A stretch of 64,000 nt of DNA from an uncultured Bacteroidales bacterium (GCA_964502355.1 CAZCWK010000006.1:2321-66320); one strand, 5' to 3'; counted from the first letter of the stretch, positions 16,767 through 32,201 are shown. The notes: generated from the sequence alone by a model not told the origin. Made by a program: numbers and translations.

Positions 16767-19250
16767 TTATTCTAAATCTACGATTGTTATACCTGCACCA
16801 CCAAACTGAACATGTTCGTCGTGATAATCTTTAACTCCATTAACTGTACCGAGGTATTGTCTGATTAGTTGCCTGAGTACTCCGGTTCCTGTGCCGTGGA
16901 GTATCCTTACACGGCTGACACCTGTCATTATAGCATCATCAATGAAATATGTAATTGTCTGCAAGGCTTCATCACCTCTCATTCCTCTTACATCTATTTC
17001 TTGTTTAAATTGTAATTTTTTTTCTCTGATTTCGTCAGATGTTCGTCTGCCAATGGTTGTATATGGGTTGAGATTTTCTTTTTTGACAGTAGCATGTTCG
17101 ATTTCGTCTATTTTGACTTTTGTTTTAATCGAACCAAAGATTACCATTGCCTTGCCTTCTTTTATTGACAAGATTGAGCCTACAGCCTGTTGCCCTTTAA
17201 TTCTTACAGTATCTTTTATTTTGAATTCCGGTTTAAGGATAGGCTTTACAGTAAGCGAAGGATTAACATCCTTTTCTTTATGTTTTGGATTGAGTTTTCT
17301 TTCGTCTTTTCTTTTGATCTTATCAATTTTTCTTTTAATAAAATCGATTTCGTCGGTATTATCTGTGGATATAGTTTCTTTAAAATCCTGGATGTTTTTT
17401 CTGAGTAATTTGGTTTTTTCCTTTTCTGCCTGAGTCTCACGGATTTCCCTGACAGTGTTTTCAATTATTGAATTGGAATTTTCCAGAATTTTTTTTGCTT
17501 CATTCTTCGCATTCAGAATTATTTCTTTTTTCTTCTGACTTACATCATTTAGTTCATTTTCAATCTTTTCATACAATTCCTCAGACTTTTTCTCCTGTAT
17601 CCTGATTTGTTGTCTTTTGTTTTCCCAATATCGTTTATCCCTTACAATGTCCTGCAAATATTTGTCTATATCAATATACTCTGAACCAACTATCTGTGAA
17701 GCCTTTTCAATCACTTCTTCAGGTAGTCCGATCTTTCTGGCAATTTCAACAGCAAAAGAACTTCCGGGTCTTCCGGTTTCTAACAAAAAAAGAGGTTTCA
17801 TCTCATTCCTGTCGTAAAGCATTGCCCCGTTAAATATGCCTTCGTGGTCATCAGCGTAATGTTTAAGATTGCTGTAATGAGTTGTAATAATGCCGAATGA
17901 TTTTTGTTTATTAAACTTTTCAAGACATGCTTCAGCTATAGCTCCTCCGATTTTTGGTTCAGTGCCACTTCCGAATTCATCAATTAATATAAGTGTTTTT
18001 CCGTTACCATTTTTCAGGAAATACTTCATGTTCAAAAGATGTGAACTATATGTACTTAAATCATTTTCAATGGATTGTTCATCGCCAATATCAACAAAAA
18101 TACTCTCAAAACATCCTGTCAATGAACTTTCATGAACAGGTATCAACAAACCGCACTGTAGCATGTATTGCAGTAAGCCGACTGTTTTCAAGCAAACCGA
18201 TTTACCACCTGCATTAGGACCTGAAATTATGAGAATTCTGTTTTTGTCATTGAGCTTTACTGATAATGGTACTATTTTTCTTTGTTGTTTTTTAAGTGAA
18301 ATGTCAAGCAGGGGATGTATGGCTTTATTATATTCAATACATGGTTCATTTATAAAATCTGGTTTAATTGCTCCTATGGTTTTCGAAAAAATCGATTTTG
18401 CTCTGAGGAAATCTATTTCAGCAAGTAACTCATATGAACTAATCATCTCAATTGCAAATGGTCTGATCTTATCTGTAATCTGTATCAAAATCTTAATAAT
18501 CTCACGTCTCTCTTCATTCTGAAGCTCTCTTATTCGGTTGTTGATTTCAACAAGTTCTTCAGGCTCAATGAAAATAGTTTTTCCTGTAGCGGATTCATCA
18601 TGTACAATACCCTTAATCTTTCTTTTATACATCGGTGAAACCGGTAAAACCAACCGGCCTTCTCTCATACCGGGAACAGTATCTTTATCCACAAATCCAT
18701 CCAATTGAGCCTTTCTCAGGATTTGACTCATCTTTCTTGAAACACTGTTGCTGGTAGATGATAATTCTTTCCTGATATTTGAAAGTTCAGGTGATGCATT
18801 ATCTTTAATTTCACCTTCAGGTGTTAAAATCGTATCAACCTTTTTAATGATTTCAGGAAATACAGGCGTTTCAGAAGCAAGCAGACTTAAACAAGGATAT
18901 TTATTTGTTTTATCTTCATTTTTAAAGAATACTACAATTTTCCTGATTGATTCCAATGATTGTCTTAATGCCAAAAGCTCTGATTCATCAAGCCAGATGC
19001 CTTCAATTCTGATTTTTTTTAGCGAAGGTTTTAAATCGTAAAAGTGACAATCCGGGAAAGTATCTTCTTCGTTTGATATATTCTGGTATTCCTGAGCTCT
19101 TCTCAGATACTCAAGTATGGTTTCATATTTGCTTGAAAATGAGATTTTATCAACTTTTTCTGAACCAAGAGTACTTAAACATTCATTTTTTAAGTACTGC
19201 CTGATCTGGTCAAATCCTATTTTTTGTTCGAAATGTATTGGATAAATCAT
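16767..19250 (-). CDS. mutS2: endonuclease MutS2 (MutS domain V ATPase + C-terminal Smr domain)
   Basis: Walker A GPNAGGKS. C-terminal Smr (VRILHGTGTGVLR). The track start 19322 adds 24 unlikely residues; the ATG at 19250 gives MIYPIHFEQKIGF. Its stop codon directly abuts the ygiQ start. Confidence 0.9.
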   Translation of the reverse strand: MIYPIHFEQKIGFDQIRQYLKNECLSTLGSEKVDKISFSSKYETILEYLRRAQEYQNISNEEDTFPDCHFYDLKPSLKKIRIEGIWLDESELLALRQSLESIRKIVVFFKNEDKTNKYPCLSLLASETPVFPEIIKKVDTILTPEGEIKDNASPELSNIRKELSSTSNSVSRKMSQILRKAQLDGFVDKDTVPGMREGRLVLPVSPMYKRKIKGIVHDESATGKTIFIEPEELVEINNRIRELQNEERREIIKILIQITDKIRPFAIEMISSYELLAEIDFLRAKSIFSKTIGAIKPDFINEPCIEYNKAIHPLLDISLKKQQRKIVPLSVKLNDKNRILIISGPNAGGKSVCLKTVGLLQYMLQCGLLIPVHESSLTGCFESIFVDIGDEQSIENDLSTYSSHLLNMKYFLKNGNGKTLILIDEFGSGTEPKIGGAIAEACLEKFNKQKSFGIITTHYSNLKHYADDHEGIFNGAMLYDRNEMKPLFLLETGRPGSSFAVEIARKIGLPEEVIEKASQIVGSEYIDIDKYLQDIVRDKRYWENKRQQIRIQEKKSEELYEKIENELNDVSQKKKEIILNAKNEAKKILENSNSIIENTVREIRETQAEKEKTKLLRKNIQDFKETISTDNTDEIDFIKRKIDKIKRKDERKLNPKHKEKDVNPSLTVKPILKPEFKIKDTVRIKGQQAVGSILSIKEGKAMVIFGSIKTKVKIDEIEHATVKKENLNPYTTIGRRTSDEIREKKLQFKQEIDVRGMRGDEALQTITYFIDDAIMTGVSRVRILHGTGTGVLRQLIRQYLGTVNGVKDYHDEHVQFGGAGITIVDLE

Positions 19251-19450
19251 AAAGCCCCGACCGAAATTTATATTTACAAATATAATACTAATAACTGAGC
19301 TGTATTGTTCTGAAAAAAACAATTAAATCTTATATATGTACTTAGTATTCACGTTCTAATCGGCATAGCAATAATGATATTTAATTGCTTTTAATCAATT
19401 AATGTTTATTTTTGTTATACCATAAACACACAAACATCATTGTTTTTATC

Positions 19451-22249
19451 ATGAAGAACTTTAAATCTGCAGTAGTTTTAATAAATATATTGTTTTTAAC
19501 TTTCTTATTTTCCTGTAATAAGCAAAGTGATCAGACCAGATCAAGGATTGATTTATCAGGGGATTGGTCGGTTTCATTGATAAGTGATTCGACATCTTCT
19601 AAAACATCCTCAATATATTTGCCCGGCACAACAGACATTGCAAAAATTGGGCACCTCAATAAAGATACTTCTTTAAGCCATTTGAACAGAGAGTATTATT
19701 ACAATGACAAGGCGTTTTACAAAAAAGAAGTGGATATACCTCAGGAATGGGATGGCAAACATATTGTTTTGTACATGGAAAGAACCAAATCATCAGGTTT
19801 ATGGATTGATGATAAACTGGTCGGTAAATCTGATATACTTGAATCCCCGCAAATCTACGATATTACATCTTTTGTGAAACCGGGAAAACATCTGTTGACT
19901 ATAATGGTGGACAATAATTTGAAAAATACTCCTTATGGGAATGTCCACATTTATTCAGATGATACTCAGACAAACTGGAATGGAATACTGGGAGATTTTT
20001 ATCTTGAAGCTTCAAGTATGACTTATATTAAGGATTTACAGGTGTTTCCTGATATCAACGATAAAAAAATTAAAGTTAAAATGACTGTAGGCAATTCCAT
20101 AAATAAAAAGATAAAGACCGAGCTTACAGTGACTAAAAGGAGAGGGGATGTAAAAGTAAAATTAGCACCTGAAAGTTTTGTTATAGATTGCGATTCCGTC
20201 ATTGAGCTTTCTTATAATTTAAAAGGAAACACCCATTACTGGGATGAATATCATCAAAGTTTCTATGATATAAATATTAAGATCGGATCTACAGATGAAT
20301 CCTGGTCTGATAGTAAAAGTGTAACTTTTGGTATGCGTAAATTTTCTACCAAAGACAATCATTTTACTATCAATGACAGAATTACATTCTTAAGAGGTAA
20401 GAATGATGCATGCATTTTTCCAAATACGGGCCATACCCCAATGGATGAAGAAACCTGGATGAAGGTGATGAGTGTAGCAAAAGAGTATGGTATCAATCAT
20501 TATCGTTTTCATTCATGGTGTCCTCCCGATGCTGCATTCAGAGCCGCTGACAAACTGGGTATCTATATGCAGGTTGAATTACCTTATTGGGGCAATATTG
20601 ATTCTTTGTATTCTAAAATGTATGATGAGGGTATTCATTTATTGGAGAATTATGCTAATCATCCTTCGTTTGTAATGTTTTCAATGGGTAATGAGTTATG
20701 GGGAGATTTTCAAAAAGCCGGTCAATTAATGACTAATCTTAAAAAAGCTGACGGCAGACCATTATATGCGATTGGTTCGAATATAAATATCGGCTATACC
20801 TGGCCTTTTGAAGGTGCGGACTTTTATGTTGGAGCAAGAACACCTTCAGATGGTGATAACCATTTAACACACTTAAGATTAACTCATGCTTTTGCTGATT
20901 CATATCAGGCGGGATTACTTAACTCTAATGTGCCATCAACAAGAATTAATTTCGATAATGCTGTTTCGCAGATAAAAATACCTGTAGTAAGTCACGAAGT
21001 TGGTCAATACCAAATATATCCTGATTTCAAAGAAATAAAAAAATACAAAGGTGTTTTGAAACCATGGAACCTTGAAAAATTCAGCAACAGATTAAAAAAA
21101 TCAGGAATGTTTGACCAAAATACTGATTTTCAAAAAGCTTCAGGTGCGTTATCCGCAATTTGTTATCGGGCAGAAATAGAAGCTGCATTAAAGACAGATA
21201 AGCTTGCTGGTTATCAATTACTTGATCTTCAAGACTATTCTGGCCAGGGAACAGCATTAGTTGGCATTTTGGATGCATTTATGGAGAGTAAAGGAGTAAT
21301 TGATGTTGAAGATTGGAAAAGTTTTTCAAATGATGTTGTGCCTCTTTTAGGTTTTGATAAATATTGCTGGACAAATAAAGAAAGATTTTCAGCTGATATA
21401 CAAATTGCAAATTTCTCAGATAAGAAATTTGATAATAAGATTGTTTATAAAATAACTGACGAGAGTGGTAAAAAAATAAAGGACGGTTTCATTAAAAACA
21501 AGATTATCGATAACCAGGGTGTAAATCATTATGGTAAAATCATGTGTGATTTGTCAACAGTAAAAAAAGCTTCTAAGCTTACAATATCCATCAGCATAGA
21601 TAGCACAAATTATAAAAATGATTATTCTGTTTGGGTATATCCTGTCAACCAGCAAATCGAAACCCCTAAAGATCTGATTGTAAGTAATAAGCTTAATAAG
21701 GCCTTACTTATTCATCTAGCTAAAGGTGGCAAAGCTTTATTGTTGCCTGAAACTTATACTGTTTCTCATAATAGTCTGCCGGGGATGTTTATCCCGGATT
21801 TCTGGAATTACGGCATGTTTAAACAAATAAGTATATCCAATGGGAAACCGGTTTCTCCCGGCACTTTAGGATTACTTATGGATCCTGAACATCCGATATT
21901 CAATGATTTCCCGACAGAATTTCACACTAACTGGCAATGGTGGAATATTATAAAAAACAGCAATTCAATGATACTGAATAATTTGAAGAGCGATTACAAA
22001 CCTATCGTTCAGGTGATTGACAATATGGAAAGAGATTATAAACTCGGTCTAATTTTTGAGTTTAAAGTAAACAAAGGCAAATTATTGATTTGTATGTCAC
22101 AATTACATAGAAACCTTGAAAAACCTGAAGTTTATCAACTTTATAAAAGCATTATTAATTATATGTCTTCCGAAAAATTTAATCCTGCTTACAGAATTAC
22201 TCCGGAAGAATTGACGCAAATGGTAAAATATACAGTTACCAAGTTTTGA
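19451..22249 (+). CDS. glycoside hydrolase family 2-like lipoprotein (sugar-binding jelly-roll + TIM barrel)
   Basis: Signal peptide with lipobox (LTFLFSC) after ATG 19451. The GH2-like N-terminal region ends NWNGILGDFYLEA; the TIM-barrel-like region contains HYRFHSWCPP and MGNELWG. The family assignment is tentative. Confidence 0.5.
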   Translation: MKNFKSAVVLINILFLTFLFSCNKQSDQTRSRIDLSGDWSVSLISDSTSSKTSSIYLPGTTDIAKIGHLNKDTSLSHLNREYYYNDKAFYKKEVDIPQEWDGKHIVLYMERTKSSGLWIDDKLVGKSDILESPQIYDITSFVKPGKHLLTIMVDNNLKNTPYGNVHIYSDDTQTNWNGILGDFYLEASSMTYIKDLQVFPDINDKKIKVKMTVGNSINKKIKTELTVTKRRGDVKVKLAPESFVIDCDSVIELSYNLKGNTHYWDEYHQSFYDINIKIGSTDESWSDSKSVTFGMRKFSTKDNHFTINDRITFLRGKNDACIFPNTGHTPMDEETWMKVMSVAKEYGINHYRFHSWCPPDAAFRAADKLGIYMQVELPYWGNIDSLYSKMYDEGIHLLENYANHPSFVMFSMGNELWGDFQKAGQLMTNLKKADGRPLYAIGSNINIGYTWPFEGADFYVGARTPSDGDNHLTHLRLTHAFADSYQAGLLNSNVPSTRINFDNAVSQIKIPVVSHEVGQYQIYPDFKEIKKYKGVLKPWNLEKFSNRLKKSGMFDQNTDFQKASGALSAICYRAEIEAALKTDKLAGYQLLDLQDYSGQGTALVGILDAFMESKGVIDVEDWKSFSNDVVPLLGFDKYCWTNKERFSADIQIANFSDKKFDNKIVYKITDESGKKIKDGFIKNKIIDNQGVNHYGKIMCDLSTVKKASKLTISISIDSTNYKNDYSVWVYPVNQQIETPKDLIVSNKLNKALLIHLAKGGKALLLPETYTVSHNSLPGMFIPDFWNYGMFKQISISNGKPVSPGTLGLLMDPEHPIFNDFPTEFHTNWQWWNIIKNSNSMILNNLKSDYKPIVQVIDNMERDYKLGLIFEFKVNKGKLLICMSQLHRNLEKPEVYQLYKSIINYMSSEKFNPAYRITPEELTQMVKYTVTKF

Positions 22250-22252
22250 TAT

Positions 22253-22939
22253 TTATTCAACAGTCATCATATAACCCGTTCCACGCATAGTCTTAATTTG
22301 AACCCGTGGATCGGGAGCAAGATATTTTCTTAACGTATAAATAAATGCATCAAGCCTTTGTTGTGTGTAAAACTTAATGCCTCCCCAGATAAGTTCGGCT
22401 ATTTCTTCTTTAGAAACCAGCTGGTTCATTTTTTTACACAAAAGTTCTAATAAATATGCTTCACGCATAGATAAATGAACATCACCATTAGATGAATGAA
22501 GTACCTGTAATTTAGCATCAAAGCCCATATTTCCCAAATGATATATGTTTTCTGATTTATCCTCAGATTTTATACCTGTCCTTTTTATAAGTCCCTGTAG
22601 ATAAGCATGAAGCTCATCAGGTAAAAAAGGTTTTTTAATATAATTATCAATGCCGATTTTATATGCTTCCAGTATTATTTTACTGGAAGTTACGCATGTT
22701 TCAAGTATGATTGGAATATCGGCATCCTTTTCTCTGATCTTTCTTGCAAAATCAAGACCACTCATTATAGGCATTTCAACATCAGATACAATTACGTCGG
22801 GTTGGAACTCTTCATACGCTCTCAATCCTTCAACAGGATTAACAGACCACTGAACATCATATTCGCCTATAAGTTCCATTCCTTCTTTTATAATGAAGCC
22901 CAAAACTTCATCATCTTCAACCAACAATAACTTGATCAT
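22253..22939 (-). CDS. OmpR/PhoB-family response regulator
   Basis: 228 aa. Receiver domain (DVIVSDVEMPIMSG, KKPF) plus a winged-helix C-terminus (MRGTGYMM). Lies 4 nt downstream of the kinase gene. Confidence 0.85.
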   Translation of the reverse strand: MIKLLLVEDDEVLGFIIKEGMELIGEYDVQWSVNPVEGLRAYEEFQPDVIVSDVEMPIMSGLDFARKIREKDADIPIILETCVTSSKIILEAYKIGIDNYIKKPFLPDELHAYLQGLIKRTGIKSEDKSENIYHLGNMGFDAKLQVLHSSNGDVHLSMREAYLLELLCKKMNQLVSKEEIAELIWGGIKFYTQQRLDAFIYTLRKYLAPDPRVQIKTMRGTGYMMTVE

Positions 22940-22943
22940 ATAA

Positions 22944-24245
22944 TCAATTTTTATATAAATCTATTATAAATTCACTGCCAACGCCTTCTGTACTATCTAC
23001 CATAATAGAGCCCTTATGGGCTTTAATAACTTTCTGGACGTAATTTAATCCTATACCAAAACCATCAATACCTTTTATATCTACTTTATTACCTCTTTCA
23101 AAATTGTCAAATATGTGTTTGATTTCTTTTTCTGAAATTCCAAACCCATTATCCTTGATATGAATCTTGAGTTTATCTGATTGACATTCACATATAATCT
23201 GAATTTTTATAGTTGATTCTGAGTATTTTATCGCATTATCTATGAGATTACTCAAAACATTTTCCATTAATGTCGGATCAAAATTCCAGACTATATTTTC
23301 CTGATTGTAACTGGTAGTAATTTCAAGATTTTTTTGTCTGTAATTATTCAATCTATAACTCTCTGCAATTTTCTCAATATATGGTTGTAATGTTACTACT
23401 TCATAGTCCGGAATAATTGCTGAATGTTCTGCTTTTGCAACCAATAGTATCCTTTCAACAGTTTTCAATAATTTTGAACTTTGATCTTTACATATTTGAT
23501 AATGTTTTTGTCTTGACTCCAGGTTACCTTCAAGCTTTCCGGAAGTCAGCATGGATGAAGACATGTATATACCACTTATAGGAGTTTTTAATTCATGAGT
23601 AAGAGCATGTGTGTATTCTTTAAGAAATGTTACAAACTTACTTTCTCTAAGCATTCCCTGTAACTGAATGATTAAAATTACACCAATCAATACAGCCAGA
23701 AACAAAGATATTATCAATATTAACTGTGCTTCCCGCAATACTGAACGAATAGGTGAAATGAGAGTTACTTTTAAATATTGATCTTCTGTAATCTTATTAT
23801 ATAAGGTGTATTTAGAATAAGTGCTTTTAATTCTGGTAGAATCATCAACCATCTTTACTGTATAATTCAACTTTTCATTCAAACTATTATCAAGGTTCTG
23901 GCTAATTAATGTATCCAGGCGTGAAACTGAACAGGGGAGACCCAGCATTTTTGATAGTTCTTGCAGGCTAGTGTTTATGTCGATTGATTTACTGACTTGA
24001 TTATCTGTAAGAACCACGTCATCATTATCTAAAATATTTTTTTCTTGAACATTTAAATTAATAGATTTTTTTTCAAGTCTTTCATATAACTCAGATTCAA
24101 CAGCTTTATCAATGCTTTCTTTGCATTTTACCAAAAGATTATGCTCCATAAGGTCAAAAGAATTTTTAAACCAGATATATTGCAGTACCAGTAACAGCAG
24201 TATGCCAACGATTGATACGATTCTGATAGATTTAGTCTTGAACAT
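22944..24245 (-). CDS. sensor histidine kinase (two TM helices flanking a periplasmic domain, HisKA + HATPase_c)
   Basis: H-box THELKTPISG, N-box LIDNAIKYS, G-boxes DNGFGIS and GFGIGLNYV. The track start 24272 is TTG; the first ATG is at 24245. Confidence 0.85.
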   Translation of the reverse strand: MFKTKSIRIVSIVGILLLLVLQYIWFKNSFDLMEHNLLVKCKESIDKAVESELYERLEKKSINLNVQEKNILDNDDVVLTDNQVSKSIDINTSLQELSKMLGLPCSVSRLDTLISQNLDNSLNEKLNYTVKMVDDSTRIKSTYSKYTLYNKITEDQYLKVTLISPIRSVLREAQLILIISLFLAVLIGVILIIQLQGMLRESKFVTFLKEYTHALTHELKTPISGIYMSSSMLTSGKLEGNLESRQKHYQICKDQSSKLLKTVERILLVAKAEHSAIIPDYEVVTLQPYIEKIAESYRLNNYRQKNLEITTSYNQENIVWNFDPTLMENVLSNLIDNAIKYSESTIKIQIICECQSDKLKIHIKDNGFGISEKEIKHIFDNFERGNKVDIKGIDGFGIGLNYVQKVIKAHKGSIMVDSTEGVGSEFIIDLYKN

Positions 24246-24297
24246 TATAATTTCATATTGAGGTGTATGCAAATATAAATGATTATTTAAAAACTTG

Positions 24298-24328
24298 CTC
24301 AGGTTAAATAAGGTTTTACTCAGATTAA
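24298..24328. promoter_or_regulatory. direct repeats CTCAGGTTAA / CTCAGATTAA (21-bp register) and AGGTT/AGGTT (10-bp register)
   Basis: CTCAGGTTAA at 24298-24307 and CTCAGATTAA at 24319-24328. AGGTT at 24301 and 24311. They sit in the divergent region between the kinase operon and the peptide gene. Confidence 0.4.
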
Positions 24329-24355
24329 CTAAGATTTCTTTTTAGGATAGACGCA

Positions 24356-24388
24356 ATCTTATATCTTATTTTTGTAAAAAATAAGATA
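24356..24388. promoter_or_regulatory. heptamer repeats (ATCTTAT x2 direct, x1 inverted) forming a perfect 12-bp inverted repeat that embeds a -7 box
   Basis: ATCTTAT at 24356-24362 and 24363-24369; its complement ATAAGAT at 24381-24387. Inverted repeat TATCTTATTTTT (24362-24373) / AAAAATAAGATA (24377-24388). TATTTTTG (24367-24374) matches TAnnTTTG, 44 nt upstream of ATG 24418. Confidence 0.5.
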
Positions 24389-24417
24389 CAGCATTAAAAA
24401 CTATAAAACACCCTGTT

Positions 24418-24564
24418 ATGAAAACAATTTTTAATTCAACCAAAAGCAACAAGAAAAATTTTGAAGTTATCTCAAGTGAAGAAATGAAACAGGTTCAAGG
24501 TGGTGTTCGCGTGATTGCTATCAGAGATGGTGAAGGAAATATAAGAGTAGTTATCATACCTTAA
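24418..24564 (+). CDS. double-glycine-leader precursor peptide (48 aa), bacteriocin/RiPP/peptide-signal candidate
   Basis: Below the ORF-track cutoff. My translation: MKTIFNSTKSNKKNFEVISSEEMKQVQGG|VRVIAIRDGEGNIRVVIIP. The leader fits the GG-leader consensus (hydrophobic at -4, -7, -12, -15; E at -8; S at -11). A C39-peptidase ABC exporter lies downstream. Confidence 0.8.
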   Translation: MKTIFNSTKSNKKNFEVISSEEMKQVQGGVRVIAIRDGEGNIRVVIIP

Positions 24565-24584
24565 GATTATTAAATATAATTAAT

Positions 24585-24761
24585 ATGGGAACAATAAATT
24601 TCCACGCAGAACGCCTGTTCTTTAATCCAATTTTAGATCCTATTTCTAATTTCAGGTCTCTCTACGGCATTGAAATTGAAGAAAATAGTCAGAATCTGTT
24701 AAACAGGTATATTTCACGTTCTGTAAATGATGCAAAGACTTACAAAGTAGTCATATTGTGA
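24585..24761 (+). CDS. hypothetical 58-aa protein (unannotated small ORF)
   Basis: ATG 24585 to TGA 24759-24761. Translation: MGTINFHAERLFFNPILDPISNFRSLYGIEIEENSQNLLNRYISRSVNDAKTYKVVIL. It starts 20 nt after the peptide gene and ends 5 nt before the SPASM gene. No recognisable motif. Confidence 0.45.
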   Translation: MGTINFHAERLFFNPILDPISNFRSLYGIEIEENSQNLLNRYISRSVNDAKTYKVVIL

Positions 24762-24766
24762 TTTAG

Positions 24767-25762
24767 ATGTATCGGTATTTTAACCTTTATTCGTTTTGTA
24801 TTCCTGTTAAGGGGATAAAAAGGGCGGTCGTCTGCGATTTGCAGCGTAATATTATTCAACCTATACCTCTGTTGCTCTTTGAATATCTCGAGAAACTTAA
24901 AACAGTTGATGAACCTTTGGAAATGTTAGATACTTATACTAACATTGAGAGGAATACAATCAATGAGTATATCAACTTCTTATATTATAATCAGTTCGGT
25001 TTTTTTACAACAAATAAGCCGATTGCTCCTGACATCCCGACAATTGAATATTCTGATGATAGTCAAATTACAAATGCAATTGTGGACTTTAACAGAAATT
25101 CGGAACATTCTTTAGAAAATATTCTTGGTCAGTTATCTGAATTGGGATGTAAGGCTATTGAAATAAGATATTTTTATCCAATACCTTTTACTCATTTTTT
25201 AGATTCATTAATCGTTGCAAATAATTGCCAGGTTGAAAAAATCGAATTTTTACTCCAGAAAAATGAGGAAATTAACTGGAACAAAATTCTTCAGTTAAAT
25301 ATTCAATTTCCAAAACTAAAAAAAGTTACTATAAGTAATTCTGCAGACAATATTATCTACAAACATGAGGACCTTGTAGTAATATATACTACTGAGATAA
25401 TCAGGAATGAGACAAAATGCGGTGTTACAGGTGAGCTTTATTGTATAGCTGATAACAGATTATTCTGGGAATCTCAGAATTTTAATAATTGTCTTTACAA
25501 AAAAATATCAATTGACAAATCCGGATTAATAAAGAATTGTCCTTCCATGCAGGAAAGCTTCGGAAATATACAATTCACTAAGCTATCTGATGTAATTTCA
25601 GATGAATCTTTTAAAAAATTCTGGACCATAACTAAGGATTCGATTGAGATTTGCTCAGAATGCGAACTAAGATATGTTTGTCAGGATTGCAGAGCTTATA
25701 CAATAAATATGAACAATCCTTTTTCCAAACCTCTGAAATGCAGATATAATCCTAAAGAATAG
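24767..25762 (+). CDS. SPASM-domain protein lacking the radical-SAM Cys triad (pseudo-radical-SAM / SPASM-only peptide-maturase-like)
   Basis: 331 aa. The C-terminus has a full 7-Cys SPASM pattern: CLYKKISIDKSGLIKNC (C-x10-G-x4-C), CSECELRYVCQDC (C-x2-C-x5-C-x2-C), and a final C in KCRYN. No CxxxCxxC occurs anywhere in the protein. Confidence 0.75.
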   Translation: MYRYFNLYSFCIPVKGIKRAVVCDLQRNIIQPIPLLLFEYLEKLKTVDEPLEMLDTYTNIERNTINEYINFLYYNQFGFFTTNKPIAPDIPTIEYSDDSQITNAIVDFNRNSEHSLENILGQLSELGCKAIEIRYFYPIPFTHFLDSLIVANNCQVEKIEFLLQKNEEINWNKILQLNIQFPKLKKVTISNSADNIIYKHEDLVVIYTTEIIRNETKCGVTGELYCIADNRLFWESQNFNNCLYKKISIDKSGLIKNCPSMQESFGNIQFTKLSDVISDESFKKFWTITKDSIEICSECELRYVCQDCRAYTINMNNPFSKPLKCRYNPKE

Positions 25763-25794
25763 CTGCAAATTTATATAAAATGTAATTGTTTGTT

Positions 25795-25802
25795 TAAATT
25801 TG
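25795..25802 (+). promoter_or_regulatory. candidate internal -7 promoter box (TAnnTTTG)
   Basis: TAAATTTG lies 40 nt upstream of the exporter ATG at 25842, in the 79-nt gap after the SPASM gene. Confidence 0.3.
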
Positions 25803-25841
25803 AAATATTATACAATTGCATTAAGAATCTAAACCCTTGTA

Positions 25842-28055
25842 ATGAAAAGCTTTCATTTTATTTCACAGTTGGATGCCATGGATTGCGGACCAACCTGCCT
25901 ATTGATGATATCAAAATTTTATGGGAAATCTTTTGATTTACAGGATTTAAGACAAAGAGCATCAATAAATAAACTTGGAACTAATCTGCTTGGCCTCAGT
26001 GAAGCTGCTGATTCATTAGGTTTTGAAGCAACCGGAGTTAAAGTTTCAGAAGATCAATTGATTGAGGATGTCCCACTGCCATGTATTCTTCACTGGAAAC
26101 AAAATCATTTTGTTGTATGTTACGACATTAAAAGGAAAAGGAATGGATCAGTGATTTTTTTAATTGCTGATCCTGCTACCGGATTAGTAAAGTATGATAA
26201 AAATGAAATCAGAAATAACTGGATAAGTTCCGGAAATTCAAATGAAAATGGAAATAAGGGAGTTGCATTGATTCTTCAACCTACAAATGTCTTTTTTGAT
26301 ATTGCAGAAGAAAAACCAAATGGAAAAAACAAGATAATCCCTTTTATTAATTATTTAAAACCGTATAAGAAGCATATTTTACAGATCATTGTAGGTATGG
26401 TAGCTATCAGCATTTTACAGTTGATTTTACCGTTTCTTACTCAGGTTTTGGTCGATATTGGTATAAAAGATGGCAATTTAAATTTCATAAAAATCATCCT
26501 CATTACCCAGCTTTTAATTTTTATTGCGAGATTATCTGTGGAATTTATCAGAGGATGGTTATTGTTACATATTAATACAAGGATAAGCATATCTCTTATT
26601 TCAGATTTTCTGATTAAAATCATGAAAATGCCTCTGAAATTTTTTGATACTAAAACAATAGGGGATATATTACAAAGGATAAGCGATCACAAAAGGATAG
26701 AATCTTTTTTAACAGGCAATTCGGTTACCTTACTATTTTCACTCATTAATTTTTTTGTATTTTCCTTAGTGCTTGGTTATTATAAATTTAGCCTGCTGGC
26801 TTTATTTTTATTAGGAAATACAATTTACGTTGTGTATGTTCTGTTTTTTATGAAATACCGCAAAAACCTCGACAATAAAAAATTTGAACTTTCTGCTGAA
26901 GAACAAGGTAATTTGATACAGATGGTTTCCGGTATGCAGGATATAAAACTAGGTAACTGTGAAAATCAAAAAAGATGGAAGTGGGAGCAAATTCAGGTAA
27001 GATTATTTAATATTAATGTCAAAAATCTTGCATTAGGACAAATTCAACAAATCGGTTCAGTCTTTTTTAGTCAGCTTACCAACATTCTGATTACGTTTAT
27101 TGCTGCTAAATCTGTGGTAGATGGCGAAATAACTTTGGGTATGTTGATGTCAGTAAGTTTTATACTGGGTCAGTTAAGTGCTCCTATTGATCAGTTTCTT
27201 GGATTTTTTCAGACATTCCAGGATGCAAAACTTAGTCTGGAACGGTTGAATGAGATTCACGGCAAAAATGATGAGGAACAGGATTCTATGAAAAAGCTTG
27301 AAGAGATATCCGGTAAAAGGAACATTATAATTTCGAATCTTAGTTTTGGATATGAACATGCTGAAAGAGATTTTATTTTAAGGGATCTGAATCTTGTGAT
27401 TGAAGAAAATAAAGTTACTGCGATCGTTGGTTCCAGCGGAAGTGGTAAAACTACATTGATAAAATTATTACTCGGTTTTTACGAACCTCAAAAAGGTAGT
27501 ATATGTATTGGTGATACTAATCTGAATAATATTAATCCTCACTACTGGAGGAATTGTACAGGCTCGGTATTGCAGGATGGTTATATTTTTTCTGAAACAA
27601 TAGCCGAAAATATTGCATTAGGTGATACTGAGATTAATAACGAAAAACTGAATAAAGCTGTAAATATTTCAAATATTAAAGATTTTATTTACTCTTTACC
27701 TCTAAAGTTCAATACAAAAATCGGTACTGATGGGCATGGTTTAAGTCAGGGACAGAAGCAAAGAATTTTAATAGCCAGGTCTGTTTACAAAAATCCGGAT
27801 TTTTTGTTTTTTGATGAAGCAACAAATGCACTTGATGCTTCAAATGAAAAGGAAATAATGGAAAATCTTGATTCTTTCTACAATGGAAAAACTGTAATCA
27901 TTGTAGCACACAGGCTAAGTACAGTCAGAAATGCAGATAAAATTGTTTTTATTGAAAATGGTCAGATTATTGAAGAGGGTAATCATGAGGAACTGACTTC
28001 GCTTCGGGGAAAATATTACAATCTTGTAAAGAATCAGTTGGAGCTTGGTAATTAA
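25842..28055 (+). CDS. peptidase-containing ABC transporter (PCAT; C39 peptidase + ABC TMD + NBD), bacteriocin/peptide exporter
   Basis: 737 aa. C39 catalytic Cys in QLDAMDCGPTC and His in HWKQNHFVV. Six-TM region. Walker A GSSGSGKTT, signature LSQGQKQR, Walker B FLFFDEATNALD, H-loop VAHRLS. Confidence 0.9.
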   Translation: MKSFHFISQLDAMDCGPTCLLMISKFYGKSFDLQDLRQRASINKLGTNLLGLSEAADSLGFEATGVKVSEDQLIEDVPLPCILHWKQNHFVVCYDIKRKRNGSVIFLIADPATGLVKYDKNEIRNNWISSGNSNENGNKGVALILQPTNVFFDIAEEKPNGKNKIIPFINYLKPYKKHILQIIVGMVAISILQLILPFLTQVLVDIGIKDGNLNFIKIILITQLLIFIARLSVEFIRGWLLLHINTRISISLISDFLIKIMKMPLKFFDTKTIGDILQRISDHKRIESFLTGNSVTLLFSLINFFVFSLVLGYYKFSLLALFLLGNTIYVVYVLFFMKYRKNLDNKKFELSAEEQGNLIQMVSGMQDIKLGNCENQKRWKWEQIQVRLFNINVKNLALGQIQQIGSVFFSQLTNILITFIAAKSVVDGEITLGMLMSVSFILGQLSAPIDQFLGFFQTFQDAKLSLERLNEIHGKNDEEQDSMKKLEEISGKRNIIISNLSFGYEHAERDFILRDLNLVIEENKVTAIVGSSGSGKTTLIKLLLGFYEPQKGSICIGDTNLNNINPHYWRNCTGSVLQDGYIFSETIAENIALGDTEINNEKLNKAVNISNIKDFIYSLPLKFNTKIGTDGHGLSQGQKQRILIARSVYKNPDFLFFDEATNALDASNEKEIMENLDSFYNGKTVIIVAHRLSTVRNADKIVFIENGQIIEEGNHEELTSLRGKYYNLVKNQLELGN

Positions 28056-28069
28056 TAAAAAATGTTCGA

Positions 28070-28585
28070 ATGAATCAAAATGATATAGAAAAAAGGTCAG
28101 GGGAAGTACAAAAACTGATGAATCAAATACCCGGTAAAATACTCATATGGGGAAATACGATAATTCTTTTTATAGTAATTAGTTTAATAATAATTGCCTG
28201 TTTTTTTAATTATTCAGAAGTAGTAAAATCTGATATCATAATTAATACTACCAGAACCGGTCATAATACATATGTGAATAAAGGGTTATTATTATTGAAT
28301 TTTGAAGGATCAGATAAAATCAGAAAAGGTTATCCTGTAGAAGTCCGTATTGATAACTATCTTGGACATAAACAAGGTCATATTAAAGGTGTTATAACAG
28401 CAATATGTACTAATAATTTAAATAGTGAGTTTGGAGAAGCTCATATAAATTTCTCCCGGACTGTGGTAGCTGATAACCATAAATATTTACCGGACTCTAT
28501 TGTGTTTCGTGGCAATGCGAAAATAATAGTTGGAAAAACCAGGTTTTTAACAAAAATAAAGCTGGCTTTGAAAAAGAAATCATAA
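28070..28585 (+). CDS. HlyD-family adaptor-like protein, unusually short (171 aa; no coiled-coil hairpin)
   Basis: The N-terminus (RSGEVQKLMNQIPGKILIWGNTIILFIVISLIIIACFF) and C-terminus (GNAKIIVGKTRFLTKIKLALKK) resemble the ends of about 400-aa Bacteroidota bacteriocin HlyD proteins (from memory). The central helical region is absent. Confidence 0.55.
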   Translation: MNQNDIEKRSGEVQKLMNQIPGKILIWGNTIILFIVISLIIIACFFNYSEVVKSDIIINTTRTGHNTYVNKGLLLLNFEGSDKIRKGYPVEVRIDNYLGHKQGHIKGVITAICTNNLNSEFGEAHINFSRTVVADNHKYLPDSIVFRGNAKIIVGKTRFLTKIKLALKKKS

Positions 28586-28593
28586 TAAAGGTA

Positions 28594-30012
28594 TTAAGCT
28601 ATAGGTATCTTAATAAGAAATTCAGTTCCAACATGTTCTTTGCTTGTAACCAGAATATCGCCTTTATGAGCCTTCACAACTTTTTTTACAAAACTTAAAC
28701 CAATACCGTATCCCATAATACTGCTTCTTTCAACTTTGCTACCCCGGTTGAAATTTTTAAAAATTTCATCCAAATCCTGAGCTGAAATTCCCATACCATT
28801 ATCGGATATTTTAATATTGAGGTTATTATTATCCTGCCGGCATTCAATATCAATATTTAGTGATTCATATGAATATTTGATAGAATTATCTATCATGTTG
28901 TAAAAAACTATCTCAAATTTGTCTTTGTCTATACAGGCTTGCAGATTTTCCGGATTACATATAAAACTAAACTTCACTTCTTTGTTTTGCACTGAGACAG
29001 ACTCTTTGTAATAACAGATTATTTCATTAACAAATTCGTTAATTTTTACAAATTTCTTTGTTAAAACAAGTTCACCTCGTTCTTCTTTTGCCAAAAGAAG
29101 TAGTCTGTGAATACTCCGGATTTGTTTTTCGCATTGTTCTTTGAATAGTTTATAATACTTGCTGCGTAACTCTTCGCTTTTATCAAAATTACCCATTTTC
29201 AACATATCAGAAACGTACATTATATTGTTTAACGGAGTCTGCATATCGTGAGTTACTGCGCTGGTATATTCCTTTAAAAATTGAATTTTAAGATGCTCTT
29301 TATTTAATGATCTTATTTGAAGAATGATAATCAGTATAACAAACATTACAATAAAAAGAGAAGTAAAGAATAAGCGTCGTATTTCTTTGTAGTGTATTAC
29401 AGATTTAAGATCAAGATTCATTTCAATTACCTGTACACTGTTTAACCTGATAAGAATATGGTTACCTTGTATGCTATCATATACCAGATTTGTATTAGAG
29501 CTAACTTCAGAAGTTGTTTTTTTGGTATTTCTACCCTTAGTAGAATCACTGATTAAACCTGAAATCTGAAAGTTTTTTAATTGAACAGAATCATTTTTGA
29601 TTGAAATATTATATTCCGGTAAAAAGCCAATTTTATTTGTAATAATACTTTTATATATAGAATCAATTTTAGATATATCAGGTTTAATACCCATAAGATA
29701 TGATGATTCATATAAAAATATTATCATATCTCCGGTTTTAGACGCCATACCACTAGCAATAACTTCTCCGTCAGTAACAAATGTATCTTTGACTAAACTT
29801 ATTTTACTGTCAGCTAAAACATCTGTTCTTTCAATCAATTCAATATCTGCCGCTTCCCTAAGGCTCGTTTTGCATTTCTCCATCATATCTTTTGATGTGG
29901 ATTCAAATGCTTGTAAAAACCAGTTATACTGCAGTATTAATAGTAATAAAACGCACAATATGGGTAATACATGCATTGATATGTAAACCAGTTTGTTCTT
30001 ATTTATTTTCAT
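28594..30012 (-). CDS. orphan sensor histidine kinase, paralog of 22944-24245
   Basis: 472 aa with the same architecture as the other kinase. TM1 LLLLILQYNWF compares with LLLLVLQYIWF. H-box VTHDMQTPLNN; NMIDNSIKYS; SDNGMGIS; GYGIGLSF. No adjacent response regulator. Confidence 0.85.
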   Translation of the reverse strand: MKINKNKLVYISMHVLPILCVLLLLILQYNWFLQAFESTSKDMMEKCKTSLREAADIELIERTDVLADSKISLVKDTFVTDGEVIASGMASKTGDMIIFLYESSYLMGIKPDISKIDSIYKSIITNKIGFLPEYNISIKNDSVQLKNFQISGLISDSTKGRNTKKTTSEVSSNTNLVYDSIQGNHILIRLNSVQVIEMNLDLKSVIHYKEIRRLFFTSLFIVMFVILIIILQIRSLNKEHLKIQFLKEYTSAVTHDMQTPLNNIMYVSDMLKMGNFDKSEELRSKYYKLFKEQCEKQIRSIHRLLLLAKEERGELVLTKKFVKINEFVNEIICYYKESVSVQNKEVKFSFICNPENLQACIDKDKFEIVFYNMIDNSIKYSYESLNIDIECRQDNNNLNIKISDNGMGISAQDLDEIFKNFNRGSKVERSSIMGYGIGLSFVKKVVKAHKGDILVTSKEHVGTEFLIKIPIA

Positions 30013-30111: not shown

Positions 30112-30582
30112 TTATTTCATCTTTTTTGTAAGTTTCTGAATATCTTCCATAGTCATGTTTCCATTCATTTGTATGATGACAAATTCGTCAGGTTCATCAA
30201 CCAACATTACAAGTTCAGAAATCAGAGTTTCAGATTTTTTCTTGACATAAAAATTTACATTGGATCCATCATCTTTGATTTTCATAAGTATTTCATATGC
30301 CGGATTGTTATGAAAGTGGGAAGTTTCCGTACGCATCATTTTTGCTATTCCGGGATTTTCAGAAGTCAGTATTAAAATACCTGATAGTTTTCCTGCAAAA
30401 TCTCCTATGTCCATTCCATTTTGGATTTTCATACCAGGCATCATTTGAAGCATTGATTTTGAAATAAATACAGAAGTAACTCCTTCCATCTCAGAAAACT
30501 TATCAAACAATTTATTTTGGGCAAAGCAATTGCCTGTAATCAGAACCATCAGTAAAGCAATTATTATATTCTTTGTTTTCAT
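30112..30582 (-). CDS. DUF4252 domain-containing secreted protein
   Basis: 156 aa with a signal peptide. The pattern LFDKFSEMEGVTSVFISKSML...ILILTSE...FVIIQMNGNMTMEDIQKL is typical of DUF4252, as I recall that family. Confidence 0.7.
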   Translation of the reverse strand: MKTKNIIIALLMVLITGNCFAQNKLFDKFSEMEGVTSVFISKSMLQMMPGMKIQNGMDIGDFAGKLSGILILTSENPGIAKMMRTETSHFHNNPAYEILMKIKDDGSNVNFYVKKKSETLISELVMLVDEPDEFVIIQMNGNMTMEDIQKLTKKMK

Positions 30583-30592
30583 ATAGTTATTA

Positions 30593-31183
30593 TTATTTGT
30601 TATTAGTAATCTTTTTAATTTGTTTGTCTAATATCTTATTGGATTTTTCAATTTTATTTGTTGCATTCTCCATTTGTTCAAATCCTGTATTTAAGTTCTC
30701 AGCGACCAAAGCAAGAGCTTTTTGAGTTTCAACGTAAGCTTTAGCCGGATCATTAAAAGTATCAGCATAGTTTTGAGTATCATTTTTCTTAACTACGGCA
30801 AATGTTATTGCAAATATTATTAGGGCACATGCTGCGATTGTTGACATAATTGTCCATGGCGAATACAGAAATACATTTTTTCTTTTTGGAGGCTTTATAT
30901 CAGGATTTATTCTTTCTGATATTGCTTTTTCACTATAGCTGGAATTGTTATTTTCGGAATTTTCAGAAAGTTTATCAATCATAGAGTTTAAATCAAACTC
31001 CAGGGATTCAGGTACGTTTATCACTTCGTTTTCATAACAAGCTAAAAATATTTTCTTGTCATCCATCAGTTCATCTGGTACATTATCCTTACTGAAGAAT
31101 TCATACAATTCTTTTTCTTGTTCGTTTGTGGTATTCCCATCATAAAACTCTGAAATTAGCTTTTTTATATGTTGAGTTCTCAT
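30593..31183 (-). CDS. putative anti-sigma factor (single-pass membrane protein)
   Basis: 196 aa. Cytoplasmic N-terminus, one TM (WTIMSTIAACALIIFAITFAVV), immediately downstream of the ECF sigma gene. Assignment is by context only. Confidence 0.4.
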   Translation of the reverse strand: MRTQHIKKLISEFYDGNTTNEQEKELYEFFSKDNVPDELMDDKKIFLACYENEVINVPESLEFDLNSMIDKLSENSENNNSSYSEKAISERINPDIKPPKRKNVFLYSPWTIMSTIAACALIIFAITFAVVKKNDTQNYADTFNDPAKAYVETQKALALVAENLNTGFEQMENATNKIEKSNKILDKQIKKITNNK

Positions 31184-31187
31184 TGTT

Positions 31188-31745
31188 TTATAGTGTAATG
31201 TTTAGACAATATTCATTATTATTTTCTACTTTATAATTCAATTCTCTGTTATAGAATGAATTATAATTTTCTTTAATAAACTTTCTACTTCTTGACAGAA
31301 TAACTCTGATATTGACAGCGCTTAATCCTGTAATCGCTTCAATTTCTTCAAAACTGTAATCATCATAGTGTCTTAATTTAAATACAAGCTTACTTTGCTC
31401 AGGCATTTTTTCGACAATCTTGTTAATAATACTTAGTGACTCATTGGTTTCAAAATCAGTAATTATTGACGAACTGTCAGACTTTTCCACATTTTGCAAA
31501 TCAAGCGAGTTCATTTTGTTTCTTGATGATCTCAAAATATCCATGCAGAGATTTCTAACCATTACTATGCAAAAGGATTCAGGATTTCTGAGTAATTCAA
31601 GCTCATCTCTTTTTTCCCACAACTTAACGTAAGTTTCCTGAACTACATCCTCTGCATCTGATGAATCTTCAAGAAGGCGATAGGCCATTCTGTAAAGTTT
31701 CTTATGTAAAGGAATAAATACTCCTTTGAAAGTAGTTGCATCCAT
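31188..31745 (-). CDS. ECF-type RNA polymerase sigma-70 factor
   Basis: 185 aa. Region 2 (DAEDVVQETYVKLW) and region 4 HTH (SFEEIEAITGLSAVNIRVILSRSRKFIK). Confidence 0.85.
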   Translation of the reverse strand: MDATTFKGVFIPLHKKLYRMAYRLLEDSSDAEDVVQETYVKLWEKRDELELLRNPESFCIVMVRNLCMDILRSSRNKMNSLDLQNVEKSDSSSIITDFETNESLSIINKIVEKMPEQSKLVFKLRHYDDYSFEEIEAITGLSAVNIRVILSRSRKFIKENYNSFYNRELNYKVENNNEYCLNITL

Positions 31746-31748
31746 TTA

Positions 31749-32201
31749 TCAATTGTTACATGCAAATTTTTGAACATCAGTTAAAGAAAAGCTGCCTTTA
31801 ATTCTGATATAAGCTGAATCATCACCGGTTACTAAAATGACGATTTCGTTAAAATGATCATTATAGTTTTTGGCCATAATCTTTACAAACTCGTCATCTT
31901 CTTTCACCTGAATAAGAGTTTCGTACAATTCATCATCAACATATCTGACTCTGTCACCATATTCTTCTTTTACATGCCTGTCACATTCACTCAAATCCAG
32001 AACCTGTAATGATTTTATTTTCAGGCCACTAAATTCTTTTTGTGATATGAATGGTCTTATCACTGACATGACAAAACGATTAAGATTTACTTTTTCAACA
32101 TTCCGGGCATATGAAAAATCCTTAAAAATATCACTCACAGATTCTGCCTGAATATTGAGGACGCTGATAAAAATTGTTGCTATAAATAAAATACGTTTCA
32201 T
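31749..32201 (-). CDS. DUF4252 domain-containing secreted protein
   Basis: 150 aa with a signal peptide. C-terminal VILVTGDDSAYIRIKGSFSLTDVQKF fits the DUF4252 pattern. First gene of the ECF operon. Confidence 0.65.
   Translation of the reverse strand: MKRILFIATIFISVLNIQAESVSDIFKDFSYARNVEKVNLNRFVMSVIRPFISQKEFSGLKIKSLQVLDLSECDRHVKEEYGDRVRYVDDELYETLIQVKEDDEFVKIMAKNYNDHFNEIVILVTGDDSAYIRIKGSFSLTDVQKFACNN

Follow-up and report, generated by a model that had tools for sequence, protein, structure and literature searches.

A conserved cassette of a GG-leader peptide, its export genes, and a two-component sensor in Bacteroidales as a candidate peptide signaling circuit

A stretch of Bacteroidales DNA of 64,000 nucleotides (nt), referred to as the window and numbered along its whole length, carries at 22253–30012 a GG-leader peptide gene with its processing and export genes, flanked by two histidine kinases (HK1 and HK2) and one response regulator (RR). 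The comparison of related loci showed that the peptide gene, the processing and export genes, and the two-component sensor constitute one conserved cassette in a group of Bacteroidales. An initial annotation of the window had suggested a Gram-positive-style peptide signaling circuit. Conserved linkage, a footprint of regulator half-sites, and co-variation of the peptide core with the HK1 sensor speak for this suggestion, whereas the lack of co-variation in HK2 speaks against it. We therefore consider it rather probable that the locus is a self-contained peptide signaling cassette, in which a NisRK-like autoinduction loop sensed by HK1 is combined with agr/com-like pherotype variation. The observations that carry this reading are the gene content, the conservation of the architecture, the promoter footprint, and the co-variation.

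In the proposed loop, the precursor would be handled by a SPASM-domain protein and a partner of 58 amino acids (aa), and a peptidase-containing ABC transporter (PCAT) would cleave it after the GG motif and export the peptide with an HlyD-type adaptor, which here lacks the periplasm-spanning hairpin. The mature peptide of about 19 aa would bind the periplasmic domain of HK1, which would in turn phosphorylate the adjacent OmpR-type regulator. The regulator would then bind four tandem half-sites between the divergent promoters and activate the peptide operon, and probably the HK1-RR operon too, creating positive feedback. The peptide core and the HK1 sensor would diversify together, yielding strain-specific "pherotypes." Binding, phosphotransfer, activation, and feedback are the steps that we infer.

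Open reading frame (ORF) listing and domain searches located each of the parts that the initial annotation had placed within 22253–30012. The precursor (24418–24564, + strand) has 48 aa, with a leader, MKTIFNSTKSNKKNFEVISSEEMKQVQGG, that ends in ...EEMKQVQGG and a core, VRVIAIRDGEGNIRVVIIP, encoded at 24505–24561. It is followed on the same strand by a 58-aa protein (24585–24761), which belongs to a clade-specific family defined by a hidden Markov model (HMM) and lies directly upstream of the SPASM gene, and by a 331-aa SPASM-domain peptide maturase-like protein (24767–25762), which matched TIGR04193 with 258.7 bits against a cutoff of 175 (NCBIfam). These two genes had gone unmentioned in the earlier finding, and the presence of the SPASM-domain protein in the cluster makes it a candidate maturation protein alongside the export genes. 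The 737-aa PCAT (25842–28055, +) contains Peptidase_C39 (103.5 bits), ABC_membrane (97.8 bits), and ABC_tran (99.6 bits) domains (Pfam), and its catalytic-cysteine motif, DAMDCGPTC, was seen in the sequence. A 171-aa HlyD-family adaptor (28070–28585, +), hairpin-less in alignment with homologues of 434–438 aa, completes the plus-strand cluster. The combination of a GG leader, a C39 PCAT, and an accessory protein was thus present as described, the accessory protein being a shortened member of the HlyD family. HK1 (22944–24245, −; 433 aa) and HK2 (28594–30012, −; 472 aa; sensor roughly 29383–29895) are both HisKA histidine kinases with two transmembrane segments (TM1 and TM2) and a HATPase_c domain (Pfam). 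The OmpR-family RR (22253–22939, −; 228 aa; Response_reg, 77.6 bits; Trans_reg_C, 58.3 bits in Pfam) had RprY as its best NCBIfam match, at 162 bits under a cutoff of 370. It lies 4 nt downstream of HK1, with which it probably forms one operon, and it adjoins HK1 in every relative whose contig extends to this position. As the initial annotation stated, only HK1 has an adjacent regulator, and HK2 is an orphan.

To survey the relatives, one genome per GTDB species was scanned with the TIGR04193 alignment, and contigs from protein look-ups were added. The resulting 87 loci (coded L001 etc.) were all annotated by tblastn, using the window proteins and the ATP-grasp of a canonical Sphingobacterium locus (L007) as queries. 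In 16 of the 87 (the window and 15 relatives, all Bacteroidales metagenome-assembled genomes (MAGs) or metagenome contigs), the SPASM protein was at least 46% identical to that of the window; the identity was 41% or less in the other 71. In this clade, RR-HK1 lies divergently upstream and HK2 convergently downstream where the contig suffices, and the RR-HK1-peptide-small ORF-SPASM-PCAT-adaptor-HK2 block was intact down to 46–51% maturase identity wherever the contig reaches. A metagenome scan with the HK1 alignment recovered orthologues at 44–61% identity, and those with enough flank (L090, L091, L093, L094, L095, L097, and L098) all lay beside the cluster. The full-length HK1 search listed about 90 orthologue clusters, and three more of these from long contigs were checked, all three with a complete cassette. 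Every context-rich HK1 orthologue (44–100% identity) therefore stands beside the cluster, and the next-closest kinases (35% identity or less) belong to generic HK-RR pairs without it. An exhaustive HMMER search of 1.84 billion cluster representatives with the HK1 periplasmic domain returned nine proteins, all of HK1/HK2 type or fragments. The word-indexed search with the HK1 sensor alone gave no match; since the exhaustive search also gave just nine relatives, this empty result reflects rapid divergence rather than a technical failure.

These results show that the linkage is not confined to one genome; such confinement is what the initial annotation had named as refuting the circuit. The cluster occurs with such kinases in every relative with sufficient contig, and RR-HK1, the peptide cluster, and HK2 are kept together there with changing right flanks (DUF4252/ECF sigma, PIF1 helicase, or NusG). 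The left flank is syntenic, with MutS2 and sometimes a GH2 or Asp-Al_Ex gene. MutS2 lies close to the cassette in the relatives with a visible left flank, which marks a fixed chromosomal site. The shared neighborhood near MutS2 and the paralogy of HK1 and HK2 are what would be expected if a peptide island had been inserted between tandem duplicated kinases and kept by vertical inheritance, with no functional link, an arrangement that the initial annotation had considered. However, HK1 and HK2 were seen side by side without the peptide genes at no locus found, leaving the insertion unsupported, and no HK1 orthologue without the peptide cluster occurred among the loci with enough context. According to the kinase tree, the HK1/HK2 duplication is older than the clade, and both copies have been kept throughout. 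Together with regulator-type sites at a fixed distance in the peptide promoter and the co-variation of the peptide with the HK1 sensor, these observations largely refute the absence of a functional link, which we regard as extremely unlikely.

The divergent intergenic region between HK1 and the precursor spans 172 nt and contains four tandem half-sites, T[CA]AG[AG]TT (24299–24336, +), which start at 24299, 24309, 24320, and 24330. They are spaced at 10/11/10 nt, their position is kept in all clade loci, and the array is predicted to be a regulator site; half-site periodicity of 10–11 nt is typical of OmpR/PhoB-family dimers. The direct repeat previously reported in the peptide promoter corresponds to two exact copies of TMAGRTTNNNTMAGRTT (24299–24315 and 24320–24336), and this pattern, at no more than one mismatch, had six matches window-wide compared with 0.99 expected. 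From sequence and conservation, the peptide-operon promoter is predicted at 24363–24387 (+), with the −7 box TATTTTTG (24367–24374) inside the palindrome ATCTTATTTTTGTAAAAAATAAGAT. The predicted −7 box of HK1-RR, TATATTTG, was read from the sequence at 24270–24277 (−), and its plus-strand form, GCAAAGATATAAGA, is kept in relatives. The half-site array was present in the relatives examined, and in all clade loci examined the proximal half-site starts exactly 37 nt before the peptide −7 box, with differing spacer sequences. The array is therefore a phylogenetic footprint that marks a regulator site positioned for control of the two divergent promoters; it is presumably bound by this RR, and the −7 boxes, such as that of HK1-RR, would act as Bacteroidota-type promoters. 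The palindrome is kept in most relatives, L005 and L012 retaining the −7 box only. Its arms contain TAAGAT, the core of the regulator half-sites, and it may represent either a further regulator site in inverted orientation or an operator for a different repressor. An exact match, TAAGGTTTCATCAGGTT, at 12391–12407, the sole other one in the 64 kb, was rejected as a further regulator box, being inside an ORF (11991–13106) and probably due to chance. The search of the 64-kb window found no regulator box upstream of HK2.

The closest genome to the window is an uncultured Bacteroidales MAG (L008), and over 21 kb the two have 90% DNA identity. When this stretch was divided into 200-nt bins, those with the lowest conservation included the precursor (69%, below every other bin), the HK2 sensor (75%), and the HK1 sensor (76%); a single unrelated bin, near 33200, was comparably low (74%). 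Nonsynonymous divergence (dN) was 0.29 in the precursor, 0.16 in the HK2 sensor, 0.13 in the adaptor, and 0.10 in the HK1 sensor, compared with 0.013–0.05 in most other segments and 0.07 in an anti-sigma-like gene. Four metagenome contigs (L093, L095, L097, and L098, the last three from related metagenomes) resolved the alleles further and gave the strongest evidence. Over about 9 kb that include HK2, the adaptor, PCAT, SPASM, and the small ORF, L097 and L098 are 100% identical, yet their peptides share only 73% aa identity in the leader and 45% in the core, and their HK1 periplasmic domains only 55% (dN 0.32; synonymous divergence, dS, saturated). The divergence starts after the small-ORF start codon, falls to 3% over the promoter, and resumes in HK1, where the aa differences fall in the stretch from TM1 to TM2 and the DHp domain is the same in both contigs. 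L095 shares its peptide and its HK1 sensor with L098 (both 100% identical), but the HK2 regions of these two contigs are 62–80% identical, with two HK2 copies in L095. The SPASM protein of L093 is only 94% identical to that of L095, yet the two loci are identical in the HK1 sensor allele, and their peptides belong to one type. According to these comparisons, the sensor allele of HK1 goes with that of the peptide, and HK2 does not.

A clade-wide test by partial Mantel correlation gave the same picture. The peptide core was correlated with the HK1 sensor when controlled for SPASM (r = 0.40, p = 0.0008, n = 14; r = 0.35, p = 0.0008, n = 17) and when controlled for the HK1 cytoplasmic part (r = 0.42, p = 0.0006). 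No significant correlation was observed in the SPASM-controlled comparisons of the core with the HK1 cytoplasmic part (r = 0.02, p = 0.44), of the leader with the HK1 sensor (r = 0.12, p = 0.12), or of the core with the HK2 sensor (r = 0.11, p = 0.16). A hypervariable block of the kind that defines agr/com pherotypes was found in the L097/L098, L095, and L093 comparisons and, in weaker form, between the window and L008. The known agr block spans agrB, agrD, and agrC (PMC10482373), and the peptide/HK1-sensor pattern is of the same kind.

Conserved linkage and regulator-type sites would fit any input, and a two-component system that controls the peptide operon while sensing another cue, such as a nutrient, stress on the envelope, or a signal from a host or competitor, would account for them as well, the peptide then being a regulated antimicrobial or other secreted product. 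HK2, without co-variation with the peptide, is in keeping with such a system, and the association of OmpR-type regulators with ATP-grasp branch 5 has already been read as plain regulation (PMC8939145). However, this explanation does not account for the domain-precise divergence of L097 and L098, which is confined to the core of the peptide and the periplasmic domain of HK1 and has its breakpoints at TM1 and TM2. The specificity of the partial Mantel signal for the core and the HK1 sensor, and the finding that the exhaustive search placed the HK1 sensor family nowhere else, also argue against it. We consider sensing of another cue unlikely.

Several points weigh against a signaling cassette sensed by HK1. 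The whole analysis is computational and comparative. The peptide gene and the HK1 sensor are just about 250 nt apart, and they would also be linked if a single divergent tract had been imported with both of them, the promoter being kept similar by constraint. The population evidence consists of a few metagenome contigs that end inside HK1, and an assembly mis-join within the conserved promoter island is still conceivable. Sensor domains in general evolve faster than kinase cores, and partial Mantel tests are liberal for phylogenetically structured data. Because all loci occupy the same site near MutS2, part of the conservation is simple vertical synteny. Finally, the loop leaves HK2, peptide modification, and the output regulon unaccounted for.

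The two kinases are paralogous, as had been noted, with 32% identity over the full length including the sensor region (E = 5e-69) and with the TM1 motif and the G-boxes common to both. In the AlphaFold2 (AF2) model of HK1 (90-sequence alignment; predicted local distance difference test (pLDDT), 75), a TM1 helix (residues 2–59) is followed by a poorly predicted loop (60–86), two helices and three strands (87–163), and one continuous helix from TM2 into DHp (166–234). HisKA thus comes directly after TM2, in agreement with the initial annotation, and HK1 has no HAMP domain. By AF2 secondary structure, the periplasmic sensor domain (approximately residues 31–172; 23730–24155, −) is mixed alpha/beta. 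A fold search with the whole model superposed the catalytic core on HK853 and WalK; it returned kinase cores only and no sensor-fold match. The H, N, G1, and G2 catalytic residues are invariant across the HK1 and HK2 types, and HK2 is therefore probably an active kinase. In the kinase tree, HK1 orthologues form a tight, monophyletic, slowly evolving clade, with 30–43% identity in the sensor versus 59–72% in the cytoplasmic part; the HK2 sequences are paralogues of greater age and evolve at a much higher rate.

The copy number of HK2 varies among relatives, some of which carry two tandem HK2-type kinases (L006 16085–17407, L095 10–1326 and 1385–2689, and L169 836–2221 and 2248–3633). In L006, the two copies share 71% identity in their cytoplasmic parts and 36% in their sensors. 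The adaptor gene that adjoins the divergent HK2 region of L095 and L098 is identical in the two contigs. HK2 is thus a hot spot where duplication and replacement occur independently of the peptide allele, and it belongs to the cassette without tracking the peptide. Distant HK-RR pairs of Bacteroidota (L107, L108, L119, L145, L160, and L166; 24–27% full-length identity) have no peptide cluster and share the N-terminal layout of HK1 and HK2, with TM1, a ...Q..W... motif, and a helical segment. HK1 and HK2 probably derive from this broader two-TM kinase family.

Across the clade, the precursor cores have about 19–35 aa and are Cys-free, with two hydrophobic stretches around a D/N-x-D/E-G turn, which suggests a beta-hairpin. 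The core in the window has a net charge of only about +1 and no Cys, and its leader gave a weak Pfam match to Bacteriocin_IIc (20.8 bits, under the cutoff). At about 7040–7200 of L011, the expected place of the precursor gene, the sequence is masked and translates as a run of X, and the peptide is unreadable there. The AF2 model of the SPASM protein (pLDDT 89.5) consists of an N-terminal strand-plus-helix domain, a partial alpha/beta barrel, and the SPASM domain, and in this model the N-terminal domain resembles a recognition element of peptides that are made by ribosomes and then modified post-translationally (RiPPs). The best PDB matches were CteB (5WGG/5WHY), a sactipeptide synthase, and TigE (8VPO), at E values of about 5e-6; in Foldseek, the match to CteB had E = 4.6e-6 with a modest TM-score of 0.43. 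The protein also matched TIGR04085 (29.1 bits; cutoff, 27). Seven SPASM cysteines are invariant (C242, C258, C296, C299, C305, C308, and C325), and further conserved Cys columns among 99 aligned homologues are C11, C23 (nearly invariant), C128, and C218. The CxxxCxxC radical-SAM motif is absent from the window protein, and the conserved Cys columns of the 99 homologues do not form it, so the SPASM protein is not a canonical radical-SAM enzyme.

The adaptor had been described as too short to span the periplasm, a description that is correct and can now be refined: relative to an HlyD-family protein of 434–438 aa, about 265 internal aa have been deleted in frame. A C-terminal truncation was rejected as the origin of the 171-aa form, the alignment showing an internal deletion. 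Full-length adaptors (434–438 aa) occur in L004, L005, L006, L010, L012, L013, and L015 and match HlyD_3 (at residues 294–390 in L004); short ones (165–181 aa) occur in the window, L001, L003, L008, L009, L014, L167, L168, and L169. The short adaptors, which are spread over several sublineages, retain a TM segment at the N terminus and a beta-barrel at the C terminus; the residues lost span the expected HlyD-type lipoyl domain and alpha-hairpin region. Since a full-length adaptor (L013) and a short one (L014) occur in closely related loci, the deletion has probably taken place more than once.

These features bear on whether the peptide is mainly a bacteriocin, in which case HK1 would detect the cell's own or a neighbor's peptide for production or immunity, and the polymorphism would stem from an arms race or from kin discrimination and not from quorum sensing. 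Machinery of the GG-leader/PCAT/HlyD kind is characteristic of bacteriocin export, the hypervariable core fits antagonism, and nisin offers a precedent for a dual role, being both antibiotic and inducer (PMC8895600). However, no immunity gene or immunity transporter was seen in the conserved module; the core is short, weakly charged, and Cys-free; and an adaptor without the hairpin speaks against efficient transfer across the outer membrane. A primary bacteriocin role, which we hold to be improbable, shares the sensing step with the signaling cassette, differs from it just in the main role of the peptide, and is inseparable from it computationally.

The cassette is a derivative of the grasp-with-spasm peptide system of Bacteroidota (GwsG/GwsS), which has lost the ATP-grasp ligase and gained kinases and a regulator. 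It shares with that system a TIGR04193 SPASM protein over the cutoff, a GG-leader precursor, a small protein before the SPASM gene, a PCAT, and an HlyD-type adaptor. The canonical system corresponds to ATP-grasp "branch 5," for which an OmpR-type regulator is listed as associated, and the small proteins in the slot before the SPASM gene, called "LPL" small proteins, have been noted as possible PqqD-like chaperones (Makarova et al. 2022, PMC8939145). In our survey, the ATP-grasp ligase (GwsG, TIGR04192) was missing from the whole clade: tblastn with the L007 query found it at none of the 16 clade loci, the window included. By comparison, it adjoins the SPASM gene in 70 of the 71 non-clade loci, the contig of the remaining one (L030) being too short to show it. 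Conversely, none of the 71 non-clade loci has a flanking two-component system, and the RR, HK1, and HK2 module is an addition of the clade. Since the ATP-grasp is missing, the locus is not a complete grasp-with-spasm system, and we read it as an incomplete one. The precursor cores also differ, being short, hairpin-like, and Cys-free. Because the survey of Makarova et al. was seeded with ATP-grasp enzymes, it was blind to this clade.

In place of the canonical small protein, all 16 clade loci have an ORF of 57–67 aa directly upstream of the SPASM gene. In the window, this 58-aa protein is 100% identical to its L008 counterpart and occupies the same position as the "LPL" small proteins (PMC8939145), but it represents an unrelated family. 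Its HMM matches the ATP-grasp-less clade only, and it has no Pfam match; an ATP-grasp remnant or a homologue of the canonical small protein was rejected on these grounds. A role as an accessory or chaperone is proposed.

Among known signaling systems, the ComABCDE/BlpABCHR type, to which the initial annotation had compared the cluster, does not include this cassette because the kinase and regulator classes differ. As that annotation itself had cautioned, the kinases are of the two-TM HisKA type (PF00512), in contrast to the polytopic HPK10 type with 6–7 TM segments (ComD/BlpH), and the regulator is of the OmpR/PhoB type (Trans_reg_C) rather than LytTR. Like Com/Blp, the cassette has an accessory protein next to its GG leader and PCAT; like agr (AgrBDCA) and ComCDE/BlpRH of Firmicutes, it has a hypervariable signal peptide and receptor sensor beside a conserved kinase domain. 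Unlike these systems, it has divergently transcribed peptide and kinase genes and a SPASM-domain protein.

NisRK/SpaRK of Lactococcus and Bacillus seems the better mechanistic analogue; NisK/NisR, a system of the OmpR family, detects nisin outside the cell (PMC8895600). In both cases, a ribosomal peptide and its dedicated transporter are encoded with the signaling genes in one biosynthetic cluster, and a two-TM HisKA kinase with an extracytoplasmic domain is paired with an OmpR-family regulator for the structural-gene promoter (a target that is predicted here). The differences are that no cluster ORF has a lanthipeptide synthetase domain (LanB/C or LanM), that sensing would be periplasmic in the Gram-negative host, that two paralogous kinases accompany one regulator, that peptide and sensor show strong allelic polymorphism, and that the HK1 sensor domain has no sequence relation to any known family. 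A Gram-negative lead, likened to the cassette by description only, is RaxX-RaxSTAB/RaxRH of Xanthomonas, in which a GG-leader RiPP is exported by a PCAT with a membrane-fusion protein and a two-component system is linked to expression of the RiPP. RaxX is a tyrosine-sulfated peptide aimed at a plant receptor, and we know of no SPASM-domain protein and no evidence of peptide/kinase co-variation in the Rax system. Within Bacteroidales, BGC5 of a 2023 RiPP survey is the one cluster that our literature search found reported with HK and RR genes (PMC10352776). It was rejected as a prior description of the cassette, having LanC-like genes and no PCAT.

A more specific version of the signaling cassette can be formulated from its parts taken jointly. 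Bacteroidales would have a true pheromone system with coexisting pherotypes, in which a SPASM-matured hairpin peptide is read by HK1 as a private periplasmic receptor. Where lineages have independently lost the adaptor hairpin, the peptide would be released into the producer's periplasm, so that a quorum signal open to all would become a more private loop of self-sensing, and the fast-evolving HK2, with its variable copy number, would listen to non-self peptides and feed the same regulator. As a whole, this combination is doubtful, and we offer it tentatively.

The genes around the cassette were also annotated. To its left, 14886–19322 (−) and 19412–22249 (+) encode a Radical_SAM_N/DUF3362 protein, MutS2 (MutS_V and Smr), and a GH2-family glycosidase. 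Directly upstream of HK2 and on the same strand, 30112–32201 (−) encodes a DUF4252 protein, a 196-aa protein without a family match, an extracytoplasmic function (ECF)-type sigma factor, and a second DUF4252 protein; a hairpin followed by a T-run at about 30075–30045 separates HK2 from this set. The four genes are present in L001, L003, L004, L167, and L168 and are replaced by other genes elsewhere, which places them outside the conserved cassette. Scans of the 64-kb window detected neither a tRNA gene nor, at gathering thresholds, a match to any Rfam family.

The reading of peptide signals by two-component kinases is a Gram-positive hallmark, and well-supported Gram-negative examples are, to our knowledge, rare. 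Our literature search found no description of a kinase-read peptide signal in Bacteroidota, nor of this architecture or of peptide/kinase pherotypes there. The cassette offers a concrete and testable candidate, with a defined peptide, a receptor domain, a regulator, and a predicted operator, and the natural allele pairs of the L097 and L098 types make the hypothesis of a Gram-negative peptide pheromone directly testable by specificity swaps. If true, co-variation of peptide and receptor as in Gram-positive pheromones would be unusual for a Gram-negative lineage. For the family, the cassette shows that one branch of grasp-with-spasm RiPPs exchanged its ATP-grasp ligase for a small protein and gained a sensor of its own, and the clade raises the question of what role a SPASM-domain protein plays without a radical-SAM cluster. 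The recurrent in-frame loss of the adaptor hairpin may serve as a natural experiment on the site of peptide delivery in a diderm cell.

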